Below, piece after piece: positions 17,386 to 58,137 of a DNA stretch of 64,000 nucleotides (position 1 is the stretch's first letter; each line of letters begins with the position of its first letter). The notes under the pieces were generated by a model. It searched no databases, was not told the DNA's origin, and saw only the letters and a program-made list of their open reading frames with translations. A program made the translations under genes and the position numbers. The stretch is from Octopus vulgaris. Its lineage: Eukaryota. The DNA is taken from positions 113,336,001 through 113,400,000 of the forward strand of contig OX597823.1 in the NCBI GenBank assembly GCA_951406725.2, written 5' to 3'.

Positions 17386-17428
17386 AATATTACCGGTTTC
17401 GATGACTATGTCCATCTTCTTCAACATT
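17386..17428 (-). ncRNA. Degenerate minimal hammerhead-ribozyme-like motif
   Basis: Minus strand: aaugu UGAAGA a gauggacauagucauc GAAA C CG GUA auauu. Stem I (aaugu/auauu), stem II and a palindromic ACCGGU stem III are present; C3 is missing. Confidence 0.5.
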
Positions 17429-17843
17429 AAATATACAAAGACAAAGATTAGAAAAGAAAACGTAGAAAGTAGAAATTAGGGCAGTTTGTTCTCGTATTTT
17501 GTGTGTAGTTAAGAATATGAATGATAGTTTTTCTTAAAGTCTCTTCGTATATAAGTTTCTTTTATTTTATGCAGGGGTTGGAATGGGTTTGAAGAGGTCA
17601 AGTCTCTGAAATTATATTGAGTTCAGCAGCCGATTTATTTCTTACAAAGAATAAGTTCAGGTTTTGTGTGTATGTGTATATATTGTGTTGAATGTCCAAA
17701 TTAAGAATGGATTTAAGAATGGTTACATATACATATATATACATATATATATATATATATATATATATATATATATATACATATATATATATATATATAT
17801 ATATATATATGTGTGTGTGTGTGTGTGTGGAGTGGGGCAAGTC

Positions 17844-17916
17844 GCCGTGGACGTCTAGTGGTTAGGACCCCCACGTTGTGTCCGTGGTAACCGAGATTCG
17901 AATCCTGGTCACGGCA
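17844..17916 (+). tRNA. tRNA-His(GTG), probably a pseudogene
   Basis: GCCGTGG..GTCTAGTGGTTAGGAC..CCACG TT GTG TC CGTGG TAAC CGAGA TTCGAAT CCTGG TCACGGCA closely resembles metazoan tRNA-His. The T-stem is mispaired (CGAGA/CCTGG) and there is an extra C. Confidence 0.8.
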
Positions 17917-17940
17917 GCCCGTCTGTGTTCTTTAACTTTT

Positions 17941-18000
17941 AAAATGGCGGTGGCCCAGCATGGCCACAGCTCGTGAGCTGAAACTAGATAAAATAAAATA
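17941..18000 (+). mobile_element. SINE/LINE 3' tail fragment
   Basis: ggcggtggcccagcatggccacagc..tgaaactagataaaataaaa matches the reverse complement of the SINE tail at 21895-21940. Confidence 0.55.
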
Positions 18001-19758
18001 TATATATATACACACACACTAATATATATATATATATATATATTTGCATATATAAGCAGAGGGAGAGAGAGAGTGTGAGAGAAAGAAAATGTAACTATAT
18101 GAATAAGTTTCCTTTTCAAATACAGATAATCCTATCGTCGAATTGTGAGCTACAGCAACCTATATATTTCTCAATAGTAGTAAATTCAATATATATTATA
18201 CACAAATTAGATTTAAAATGGATGTACGAGGAAGGAATATTAACAGGAAAATAAAATTCGTTACTCACATTTTGCGTTCTTCATAATATTTTGTAGTTAA
18301 AAGTAAATAGATCTGTCAGATATTTAAAAGTATAACACGTATCACATTTGACAGGAGAAAGCTATAATAATTAAAAAATAAAAACAAGTAACCAAATAAT
18401 TAGAGAAAATAGTAAGGAAATGGAAATAATACACATTGGTATTCATATTTGACAGGAATTCTATTAATCAAAGATGATGGTCAATAAACACTAGAATTCA
18501 GAATCAAATTAATATATTCAACCAAAACGGAAAGTAAGTCAAATATTCAAAACAAAAGACAAAACGCCATTATCGCATAAAAAGGGAAAAACCGGCTCTC
18601 ATATTTACATATGCATGCAGTTCATATGTGTGTGTATACATACACTCTCATACATTTATGTATATGCATATATATATTTATATATAGATATATATATATA
18701 CACACACACACACACACACATATATATATATATATATATGTATATACACATATATATGCGTGTGTGTGTGTATGTATGTATGTATATGGGCGTGTGCGTA
18801 TGTTTTCGTGTGTACATGTATGTGTGCGTTTGCGTGTATGTATACATGTATATATATATATATGTGTGTACGTACATGTGATTTAAATTCGACCTGCTAT
18901 TAGATTCATACTTTGAAAACATGTTGGTCTGACAAGCTTCTGCAGAGTGCTGTGTTTCAAAGTATCGAAGTAGTCTTTCAGACTCAATTATACAATATGG
19001 CGGGTTCGTTTAAACAATGAGAAAAAACGAGAAGAGTCAAAAATTAAGCGGAACGAGAGAAAAGAAAATATCATAATTTACTAGCTTTCTTTGGTCCTTA
19101 CCTGCGTTTTCTGAAAAACAAGCTGGTTTCATTATTGTTTTTAGTTTTAAATGCACGAGCCATGTTGTATATTTAAGTTTAGAAGACCGTCTAGAGATAC
19201 TCAACACGCTATACAACCTGTACAAGCTTGTCAGATCATCGTGAATGCTCAGTAGGTATCTATTAGTGGCCCGAATTTAAATGTATATTAAATGGTTCTT
19301 ATCTCACAATGGATGGAACACTTTTTTGTTCATACGCCTCCAAAAAAGGAACAATGCATTTAATATATATATATATATATATATATGTGTGTGTGTGTGT
19401 GTGTGTGTGTGTAAATTTACATATTTATATGTATATATGTATAAATATACATATATGTATATATATATATATATATATATATATATATATAAATATATAT
19501 ATATATATGTATATATATATAAATATCCATTTAAAATGCATACATACATACATATATATATATGTATATATATATTTATATATGTTTAAATATTTGTTGT
19601 GCAAGATTTTTTATGTGAAGTCGTGTGTTGAAACAGATATTGTTATATTTCGGAATGGTCATATTGCCAGTTTAGCCAATAAAAACACACGCACTATATA
19701 TTTGGTGTTATTTTGCTTCAGTGATATTTATTTTTTACATTAATCTTAATCTTATTTC

Positions 19759-19802
19759 GGCCAAAGTTCTTTCGTCACACTCCTGTGACCGCATCAGTGG
19801 CC
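19759..19802 (-). ncRNA. Minimal type-I hammerhead ribozyme motif (A9->C variant, extra G)
   Basis: ggcca CUGAUGC G gucaca-ggag-ugugac GAA AG aa CU U uggcc: 5-bp stem I, 6-bp stem II, 2-bp stem III, CUU site. Confidence 0.7.
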
Positions 19803-19914
19803 TTTGTTTTCTTCTCACTTACTTGTGTCTCTCCTTACTAACCGTCAGCCATTTTGTATACAAAATGGCTGACGGTTAGTAAGGAGAGACACAAGTAAGT
19901 GAGAAGAAAACAAA

Positions 19915-19959
19915 GGACCACTGATGCGGTCACAGGAGTGTGACGAAAGAACTTTGGCC
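19915..19959 (+). ncRNA. Minimal type-I hammerhead ribozyme motif (mirror copy)
   Basis: ggacca CUGAUGC G gucaca-ggag-ugugac GAA AG aa CU U uggcc. Confidence 0.68.
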
Positions 19960-55644: not shown

Positions 55645-56290
55645 TGTTAACATAGAATTAGAATTACTTTTCTGGATTATAAAATGGAATTTGTTAGCGT
55701 TACGTAGATGTTTAAACTTTAATATACATATAACGGGAGCATAAAAATTGTGGATCTAATTCAAACTAGTATGATTTTTTAAACTAATAATCTGACCTTC
55801 TGTTGTTTACTACATGACTAGCGGATAAGTTCTAACGATTTAGCTAACTGGAAATAGTCAATGATTTAAATGACCGCTCCCTGACCCCCAATATAATCTT
55901 AAATATTTTTAAATATTTAATATGCATAAACATAAGCATACACAATTGGACTAAATTCAGCTTTGACATAGAGTTTGAAGTTGCTACTTTGGTTTTTAAA
56001 AATGAAGTTTTAGAATATGTGGATGTATTAATTTTAATAAGCATATAACGGAAACGTAAACATTGCGAATTAAACTCAGCTTAGACATAAAGTTTGGATT
56101 TTCTTTCTGGATTCTATATTTGGATTTGTTCGTGTAACTTGGATGTATTAAATAATATCTAAATAAATTTAATATGCATATAACAGAGACATATACATTG
56201 TGGACATAACCCAGCTTAGACATATAGTTTGGATTTACTACTTTGGATTCTAAAATTGAATTTGTTCGTGTTACGTGTATGCGTTAGTAT
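55645..56290. repeat. Degenerate ~120-135-bp tandem repeat, ~4 copies
   Basis: Recurring ttaatatgcatataac..attgtgga..cagcttagacata.agtttggattt..tggattcta..atttgttcgtgt.ac. Confidence 0.75.
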
Positions 56291-56647
56291 GATCTGCTGA
56301 GGATTATCGTTAAAGCAATAATAATGCTGGTACTGTTAAACATAGTAGAGTATATAAATTAGAATGTATTTACGTAACTATACGATGCATAATATGCCCA
56401 ATGTAATGTAATATATTGTTCAATGATGTTCTTTTATGTATTTTACGCATGTGAATAGTATGTATTTGCTTATGTATATATATATATGTATGTATATTTG
56501 TATTTTTTTTTATATGTAGGTATATATATATATAAATATATATATGTACGTATTTTGGATATTTGTTTATTATTTATTTGTATATATTAGATAAGTGCAG
56601 CATGCTTTGTATATCAATATTATTATTATACTTTTAAAATTAATTAT

Positions 56648-56760
56648 ATCCACTGACGAGGCCTATAAATTTTAATGCCTACAACCATAATATACTGACA
56701 TCTGTAGGCAATATAAGTTGGACTGACTTTTGACCGTAGGCAGAAACAGCTGTAAGAAGT
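56648..56760 (+). ncRNA. Hammerhead ribozyme motif with long branched stem II and palindromic minimal stem III
   Basis: CUGACGA (56653) g gccua...uaggc a GAAAC AGCU GUA, with an internal gccuaca/uguaggc hairpin. C11.1 is replaced by A and stem I is weak. Confidence 0.62.
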
Positions 56761-57029
56761 AGTTTATGAATTTCAATAATTTATAATATGACTTTTAAAA
56801 TATGTATTTGTATTATTTTTATTGTTATATTGCCCATTGATTTATATAATGTTTTCTTTGCTTTTGATGTTCTCGTTTGTATAATTAATAAACAATGTAA
56901 AATTGTAATATCCGTAAGTTGCAGAACGAGTTGAATTTGTTTCTCCATTTTCTTATTTGTATTATATACATATACATACATACATACATACATACATACA
57001 TACATATATATATATATATATATATATGA

Positions 57030-57240
57030 CGCCGCTTGGCTGACCGGTTCGCGGAACACCTTCGTGACATCCACCTTGCGAACGACACACCGGTCTCACG
57101 CCATTTCCGCTCCACCGGTCACTCCTTGCAACACCTATCTGTGTTCGGTTTGTCCTTACAGAGGCCATCCGGATTCCCGTTTGCGCCGTGAACAGGAATT
57201 AATCTTCTCTCTTCGCTCTTATACGCCATTTGGTCTCAAC
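57030..57240 (+). pseudogene. PLE GIY-YIG endonuclease C-terminal fragment (frameshifted)
   Basis: RRLADRFAEHLRDI..TPVSRHFRSTGHS..LSVFGL, frameshift near 57157, then YRGHPDSRLRREQELIFSLRSYTPFGLN. This has the R..EH, E and GLN motifs typical of the family. Confidence 0.85.
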
Positions 57241-57589
57241 TCTCCCCCCTCCTCATCTAACCCCCTCTCCCCCTCCTCACCTATCCTTTCCCCCCGACCC
57301 CTACTTCTTGAGTCCTTCATCCTTTCACCCCTACTCCCCTTCCCTTCTTCCCTCTTTCTCCCTCCTTCCTTCCCTCTTCCCCTTCCCTCTGCTCCCTCAC
57401 TCCCTCTCTCCCCTTCTCTCTCCCCCTCTCCCTCTTTCCTTATTCCTCCCCTCCTCCCCTTCCTTCTCCCCCTCCTCTCCTCTTCCCCCTCTCCTTCCCC
57501 CCTCTTCTTCCCCCCTTCTCTCCCCTCCCCCTCTTCTCCTCACTACACCACACGACGTTACACATCACATCATATATGATGTGCCATAC

Positions 57590-57920
57590 TAATACATACA
57601 CCAATTAATACATACTAATACGTACTAATACATACTAATACATACACCAACCCTATACATACACACGTCCAGACCCCGCATACGCACTTATACTCTCTCA
57701 TACACATACACACACACACACACACTTATACATACTAATACGTACTAATACATACTAATACATACTAATACATACACCAACCCCATACATACGCACGTCC
57801 AGACCAATCCTACGCACTAATACTCTCTCATACACACACACACACACACCCTTATACATACTAATACATACACCAACCCTATACATACACACGTCCAGAC
57901 CCCTCCTACGCACTATTAGC
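57590..57920. repeat. ~100-130-bp tandem repeat (3 copies) inside the PLE 3' region
   Basis: Recurring catacaccaaccc.atacatac.cacgtccagacc..tacgcact.atactctctcatacac with (catactaata)n spacers. Confidence 0.85.
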
Positions 57921-58099
57921 TGGTCCTTCAACCCTATTATCAACCCTATTATCAACCCTATTATCTCCCCTTATTTCGCTCTCGCGTCTCATGTTTGATC
58001 TTTGACCTCTGGCCGAAATCAGATCGCCATGTTGATTCGTTAGCTACTGCACGCATTTTTTTTCTCTCCTTCTTTCTGTGTTTTTTTTCTCTCTGTGTA

Positions 58100-58137
58100 T
58101 CTTTCTGTTGAAGAGCGTAGGCTCGAAACGTTAAAGA
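58100..58137 (+). ncRNA. Minimal HHR motif, CUGUUGA core variant
   Basis: ucuuu CUGUUGA A gagc-guag-gcuc GAAAC GUU aaaga: 5-bp stem I, 4-bp stem II, palindromic AACGUU. Confidence 0.7.

Follow-up and report, generated by a model that had tools for sequence, protein, structure and literature searches.

In the genome of Octopus vulgaris, the window considered here (64,000 nt of contig OX597823.1, positions 113,336,001 to 113,400,000; 34% G+C and very rich in microsatellites) carries 14 sites at which a first-pass annotation had noticed hammerhead ribozyme-shaped motifs; these are very probably hammerhead-shaped portions of 3' terminal repeats that belong to at least seven families of Penelope-like elements (PLEs), present as 5'-truncated or folded-back copies within (TA)n repeats. 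All 14 sites were read, and the genome (2.8 Gb in 227 contigs) was searched with eight segments as queries, of which each contributed its 30 best loci; families are described by the majority sequence over these loci, and core counts are given out of 30. As only the best 40 or 150 candidates of a genome search were scored, copies resembling the query are favoured. Each of the 14 sites is a copy of a high-copy family, and in every one of these families the majority sequence across the genome has the form of a minimal type-I hammerhead; at the family level the annotated motifs are thus real. They sort into seven families or nine subfamilies (F1a, F1b, F2a, F2b, F3, F4, F5, F6 and F7; Table 1), where about six families had been estimated.

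The CUGANGA-like core followed by GAAA, by which the motifs had been recognised, holds for some of the individual copies: CUGANGA plus GAAA is intact in three of the 14 (34959, 44485 and 56653), four are intact with a variant core that is fixed in their family (19797 on the minus strand, 19921, 20451 and 58105), the copy at 17386 is diverged, and six are damaged (26155, 26209, 29446, 29649, 34771 and 51118), the last having lost its CUGANGA box by a deletion between two short direct repeats. A fifteenth motif, intact and belonging to a further family (F8, at 63769 on the minus strand), and a half motif at 20190-20240 were both absent from the earlier list; the motif density is 15 in 64 kb.

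Published systems are cited here from the accessible portions of their text. Minimal type-I hammerheads have been described in the pseudo-long terminal repeats (pLTRs) of metazoan PLEs (Cervera and de la Pena 2014, PMC4209133; Lunse et al., cited in PMC6765202), truncated PLEs leaving single minimal hammerheads genome-wide, opposite-strand pairs 100-700 bp apart and motifs with a U3-A8 core (PMC4209133). The octopus motifs share with these the short palindromic stem III, the extra base between positions 9 and 10.1 and the U3-A8 variant, together with the many families per genome, the preponderance of single motifs from truncated PLEs and the opposite-strand pairs 100-700 bp apart; they differ in the family-fixed A9C, A6U, U4C and C3U changes, in the very long stem II of F6 and F7 and in their higher density. 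The window motifs are no new class of mini-element; PLE ends with minimal hammerheads are already known. A published annotation of Octopus vulgaris repeats counts 31 Penelope-like families as recently active, and the word "ribozyme" occurs 0 times in its main text (PMC13282606).

Links to Penelope-like open reading frames and 3' ends

For F1b, a young family of open reading frames (ORFs) was traced from a GIY-YIG ORF beside one locus; 144 of the best 150 scored matches to the C-terminus of this 1311-aa ORF are 100% identical over 150 aa, and seven of the best 150 lie in open frames of 1310-1312 aa. The F1b end follows about 500 nt past the stop of the same ORF in 30/30 fetched loci, and window positions 19900-20065 are 99.3-100% identical to the F1b 3' ends at all 30 ORF loci, with 166/166 identities in most. 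An exact 25-mer of the F1b 3' end has 1,996 genome matches and an exact F4 pattern has 1,063, the reversed control giving 0 in both cases. At locus L361, an inverted arm is followed by a pLTR, the ORF and a second pLTR, with a pLTR spacing of 4.58 kb; the ORF (L361:5009-8944) is intact and has a long Asn-rich N-terminal region and DKS instead of DKG. It aligns across its reverse transcriptase (RT) and endonuclease (EN) with a Pfam-positive RT/GIY-YIG protein (E 1e-7), and HTH_animal, GIY-YIG and RVT_1 are found in the proteins that resemble it in the Atlas.

The window itself supplies the link for F2b: positions 57027-57245 encode a Neptune-like endonuclease end, and the motif at 58100 lies downstream of such an end in 29/30 loci, the window's own included, and about 1 kb past it in all but one of the linked loci; the parent protein matches Pfam RVT_1 and GIY-YIG below cut-off. 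The labels Neptune and Nematis are motif-based, not tree-based. Among the remaining families, a GIY-YIG C-terminus lies upstream of F1a in 3/30 loci, a Neptune-like RT-EN ORF upstream of F5 in 2/30 (L452, identical to L127, and L146; in L452 no TA run separates the ORF from the motif), a Nematis-like EN about 2 kb upstream of F6 in 5/20, one of them the query's own locus, and a Nematis-like EN upstream of F4 in 2/30. For F7, an ORF follows the pLTR in L449, whose 3' untranslated region (UTR) matches the sequence upstream of the motif in L450; F3 precedes a Nematis-like ORF in L299 and has an ORF link in one of eight further loci, and an EN C-terminus lies upstream of F2a in 1/8 loci. Two neighbouring coding sequences were rejected as parents: the ORF fragment beside F2a in L012, which an F2a end follows in 1/30 loci, and the Neptune EN beside F8, found in 1/30 loci.

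The 3' ends of F1b (first 100 matches listed) fall at two points 56 nt apart, with 43 and 38 copies, and 80 of these 100 copies run directly into TA. Four fold-backs occur among the annotated sites. Among the first 100 F4 matches listed, 18 pair up into nine perfect fold-backs (for example L432/L433, L436/L437 and L445/L446), all of which have at their centre the same 4-nt palindrome, situated just 5' of the hammerhead's stem I; local self-complementarity therefore likely guides the template switch. An inverted 5'-truncated copy is the standard fold-back arm of PLEs (PMC8557442), and the two F1b 3' ends match the "tail" of the PLE studied in PMC11167929. Features of endonuclease-bearing (EN+) PLEs were found, namely a PLE-type RT contiguous with GIY-YIG, partial tandems with an inverted arm, and two 3' ends with (TA)n. 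The elements thus resemble the clades Neptune and Nematis (Craig et al. 2021, PMC8557442) in having an RT, a linker Zn-finger and, C-terminally, GIY-YIG, partial tandems, an inverted 5'-truncated arm, an optional tail and (TA)n targets; they depart from them in the F1b tail of 56 nt against the 30-40 reported, and in the F1b parent, with its 1311-aa ORF, long Asn-rich N-terminal part and DKS for DKG. ORF linkage, the two points at which 3' ends are fixed, the arms that are inverted and 5'-truncated, and the (TA)n targets together bear out the suggestion of ribozyme-bearing PLE ends, as far as the PLE ends are concerned. The accompanying description of segments bounded by (TA)n is correct for nine of the 14 sites, which lie in segments of at most 600 bp (19% of random positions do so), and incomplete in that TA runs are often internal to longer elements; the motif at 58100, for instance, closes a 1.2-kb piece that begins in the endonuclease C-terminus.

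The families, ORF links, fixed 3' ends, inverted arms and TA targets were observed directly, and the steps that could join them are drawn from work on other PLEs; in one of these, the protein is an enzyme that cleaves AT-rich DNA and begins reverse transcription at either of two internal sites, by which the tail is defined (PMC11167929). The octopus copies were likely written into (TA)n repeats by the element's own RT/GIY-YIG protein, which would nick AT-rich DNA and begin reverse transcription at two fixed positions, situated about 125 and 180 nt beyond the predicted cut site, usually halting or switching template within a few hundred bases. A hammerhead near the start point would then be copied in most insertions; because no more than about 200 nt separate it from the start points, it would be present in nearly all short insertions, which would explain 15 motifs in 64 kb without a class of mini-elements. 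In intact tandem elements the hammerhead may have weak cleavage activity, either when two copies dimerise through the self-pairing stem III or when the element's protein assists, and single window copies would mostly be dead passengers. The F8 copy at 63769 would be a tandem retrozyme that is non-autonomous and likely owes its mobility to these same enzymes.

Four further parts of the window touch on these ends. A fold-back of F1-type 3' ends at 53170-53450 is cut off before the hammerhead, and one of another high-copy family at 7686-7948 also ends before it; longer copies of this family (L612, L613, L617) have a canonical-core hammerhead upstream, with stem III ACGCGU. Around the F1b element, fold-back symmetry runs past the element into flanking microsatellite DNA (19506-19583 and 20090-20189), as a short unique core inverted on both sides, in the manner of an inverted target duplication or an older palindrome. 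Lastly, an AT-rich repeat pair (29090-29330 and 58249-58449) looks by eye like the extreme 3' tail of F6-type elements.

Hammerhead architecture and fixed core variants

Stems I and II around CUGANGA and GAAA, the A15.1-U16.1 pair and H17 are present, and F1a, F6 and F7 are canonical. The F1a majority sequence has a canonical core with an extra G after position 9, a 6-bp stem II, stem III AGAUUU and C17, and F6 and F7 combine canonical cores with a long stem II and 8-nt stem III palindromes. The canonical core is not invariant in the other families: F1b carries A9C (C at position 9 in 55/55 contexts, with U in 41 and C in 14 at position 17) where its sister subfamily F1a is canonical; F2 carries A6U (U6 in 29/30 F2a loci, with stem III ACGU, and in 30/30 F2b matches), unlike a sister copy of F2 in L439 with the canonical A6; F3 and F4 carry U4C (C4 in 25/30 for F3, with an 8-bp stem I and a 3-bp stem II, and in 20/30 for F4, with four gaps); F5 carries U3-A8 (U3 in 29/30 and A8 in 29/30, with stem III ACCGGU); and F8 carries C3U (U3 in 30/30 with G8 in 30/30, and a 6-bp stem I). 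U4C recurs in a further young Nematis-like family (L331), and U3-A8, by eye, in a Neptune-like family (L293). Self-pairing of stem III is perfect in F2 and F5-F8, odd-length in F3 and F4, achieved through G-U pairs in F1a and imperfect in F1b, with two A.A mismatches.

From family to family there is no common stem sequence, and the stem III palindromes differ as well, while the layout remains constant; because the stems differ while the layout is constant, the hammerhead fold was probably under selection in the source elements, and this constancy is the strongest sign of such selection. Between F1a and F1b, compensatory differences keep stem I paired (by eye). The lower mismatch of the core relative to the 3' flank (2.8% against 4.5%) was not used as evidence, as the copies were chosen by similarity to core-containing queries.

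At least nine further hammerhead families occur in the flanks of the loci (L090, L152, L170, L178, L199, L212, L318, L454 and L513); they have other stems and palindromes, and several have U3-A8 or U4C cores.

Cleavage, retrozymes and chance matches

Several points weigh against the PLE reading or its extension to active ribozymes. Self-cleavage at NUH is, for every family, a prediction from sequence; the 1311-aa ORF has no Pfam match and no clade is assigned to it; the parent links of F2a, F3, F4 and F5 amount to one or two loci each, and some of these families may spread mainly as non-autonomous elements; stem I has only 2 bp in F6 and F7; and minimum-energy folds fail to give the hammerhead junction for several copies. 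The 5' ends of F1b also lack a clear pile-up at the predicted cut site: 38 of 100 copies are truncated within 165 nt, of which nine end 28-40 nt upstream of the anchor and one exactly at the predicted site (35), a peak with a P of 0.002 for a window chosen post hoc and 0.11 after scan correction, in which two of the nine share a junction and beside which a larger cluster of ten lies at 131-140.

It is quite possible, if short of probable, that the variant-core motifs no longer cut, and that their fold persists for a role in protein binding or RNA folding, or as a hitch-hiker near the start of reverse transcription; such an account is compatible with PLE identity and competes on function only. 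The fixation of C9 and the prevalence of U17 in F1b, a family nevertheless found at the copy number given above, favour it, as does the near-universal U6 of F2a and F2b. Changes at A9 and A6 slow cleavage in hammerhead mutagenesis. U3-A8, U4C and A6C have been reported as natural hammerhead variants, the first two of them working and an A6 change slowing cleavage (PMC3088659); the working variants speak for continued cutting, as do the stems retained through compensatory differences between subfamilies. The octopus motifs share U3-A8, U4C and a U10.1.U11.1 opening pair with the variants of Perreault et al. 2011 (PMC3088659), and differ in having A6U in place of the A6C reported there and in being fixed in high-copy families. 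"A9C" has 0 occurrences in the main text of PMC3088659, and full-text literature searches found neither A6U nor A9C; these searches did not cover supplements or Lunse et al., so that novelty is not proven. The experimental work on a PLE bears on both sides, as its hammerhead cut only in the presence of the protein, which shows that protein-assisted cleavage exists, while cutting was dispensable for insertion in vitro, where hammerhead mutants were without effect (PMC11167929); hammerheads have also been suggested as possible parasites of PLEs (PMC8557442).

We tentatively propose that PLE families, the youngest included, sample cores expected to be weak or dead as free RNA (A9C with U17, A6U, U4C, C3U), cleavage being either rescued by protein or dispensable. 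With rescue, descriptor searches would overlook many of these ribozymes; without it, PLEs would spread in vivo with no need of cleavage. A natural pair to tell rescue from dispensability would be formed by the intact 1311-aa element and the canonical subfamily that is its sister.

It is very improbable that most of the families are self-contained non-autonomous retrozymes or elements akin to short interspersed elements (SINEs), spreading through small circular RNAs. In F2a, F3 and F4 the copies sampled are for the most part short and without ORFs; against this, 5' ends are heterogeneous, the longest copies reach the GIY-YIG C-terminus or the start of the ORF, and no head-to-tail monomer arrays were noticed in the F1-F7 loci viewed, of which no systematic count was made. 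The 14 sites lack retrozyme organisation, their sequences continuing into long 3' UTRs and ORFs, and the label of mostly non-coding mini-elements or retrozyme-like elements is wrong for them because they are truncation products of coding elements.

The description fits F8, the sole tandem retrozyme found, whose copies elsewhere in the genome occur as tandem units. Head-to-tail units are present in five distinct loci among its best 30 rows, spaced by 348-407 nt and mostly by 352-354 nt, with no contiguous ORF at the examined loci, inverted arms and two 3' ends. F8 is a non-coding tandem unit of about 350 nt with one predicted hammerhead, i.e., by its sequence a retrozyme. It resembles metazoan non-LTR retrozymes (PMC7229834; Li et al. 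2026, 10.64898/2026.07.22.740005) in its size, its single predicted type-I hammerhead and its occurrence as tandem and monomer, and differs from them in its C3U core and PLE-type inverted arms. Assembled contigs (from three presumed RNA runs and one untyped) overlap parts of F8 and contain no informative ends or joints, and its 5' ends have no cut-site peak in 46 matches.

That the motifs are chance matches in AT-rich, hairpin-rich repeats has next to no probability and is refuted at the family level, by the family majority sequences and by the shuffle controls of a second descriptor (five window matches against 0 in 30 shuffles, and 110 in the locus flanks, which total 1,048,300 bases, against 0 in shuffled sequence of 660,000 bases, its permitted cores having been picked after the families were seen and the flanks being enriched for these families); the same layout near PLE 3' ends in unrelated families also argues against it. 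With one core change allowed, a relaxed descriptor also exceeds chance, giving four window matches against two in 15 shuffles; with a strictly canonical core it gives none, most window copies failing it, and with two core mismatches there is no enrichment (four observed, 0-4 in shuffles). In Rfam, no hammerhead family appears among the best 150 of 455 rows, which are dominated by miRNA models on microsatellites.

Window copies, neighbouring repeats and wider meaning

Table 1. Hammerhead-bearing elements of the window, with the first-pass sites assigned to each.
Positions	Strand	Family	Element	Hammerhead	First-pass site
17290..17500	-	F5	PLE 3' end	~17386-17428, diverged; family core U3-A8, stem III ACCGGU	17386-
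19585..20065	both	F1b	fold-back in which the young 1311-aa PLE is present as two 3' ends, head to head	19759-19803 (-), 19915-19959 (+); A9C core, cleavage base U17	19759-, 19915+
20190..20337	-	F4	3'-end fragment	stem II, GAAA and stem III only	
20345..20572	+	F2a	PLE 3' end	20444-20484, intact; A6U core, stem III ACGU	20447+
26052..26279		F3	fold-back	~26155-26195 (-), ~26204-26252 (+), both damaged; family core U4C	26155-, 26209+
29345..29548	-	F2a	copy	~29446-29483, broken stem III	29446-
29567..29722	+	F3	copy	~29646-29690, G5A (CpG decay)	29649+
34664..35147		F1a	fold-back	34771-34815 (-), damaged; 34952-34996 (+), canonical minimal hammerhead	34771-, 34954+
44390..44740	+	F6	PLE 3' end	44478-44580, canonical core; stem I of 2 bp only, long stem II with U.U as its opening pair, stem III ACGUACGU	44481+
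51081..51283	-	F4	fold-back	~51110-51175, half hammerhead; family core U4C	51118-
55800..57003	+	F7	PLE 3' UTR (5' limit approximate)	56646-56762, canonical core; stem I of 2 bp only, stem II with a very long loop, stem III ACAGCUGU	56648+
57027..58228	+	F2b	5'-truncated Neptune-like PLE: GIY-YIG C-terminus 57027-57245, then ~850-nt 3' UTR	58098-58138, intact; A6U core	58100+
63513..63870	-	F8	retrozyme monomer	63729-63777; C3U core, 6-bp stem I, stem III ACUAUAGU	

Other repeats share the window. At its start (3-3535, plus strand) lies a frameshifted non-LTR retrotransposon in which an RT (RVT_1, E 2e-19) precedes zf-RVT and the motif of a restriction-like endonuclease; (AAT)n comes after it at 3761-3798, and we take the element to be R4/Dong-like. 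A fold-back at 28567-29056, examined as a candidate PLE end, was rejected as mariner-derived: it spans about 490 bp and consists of an inverted repeat made from the C-terminal part of a transposase that is mariner-like in its motif. A separate fragment at 12310-12630 is presumably mariner-like too, judging from its motif. Positions 5498-5648 form a 150-bp near-perfect palindrome with 21-bp internal repeats, and 42064-42790 consist of tandem 184-bp SINE-like units.

PLE ends with minimal hammerheads are already known to litter invertebrate genomes, and in this respect the basic finding is ordinary. In practical terms, searches with canonical cores and Rfam undercount these motifs, and the short (TA)n-bounded pieces could be misfiled as SINEs. 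What the octopus families add is a test set for the role of PLE hammerheads, in which young, ORF-intact families with variant cores stand beside canonical sister subfamilies within one genome.

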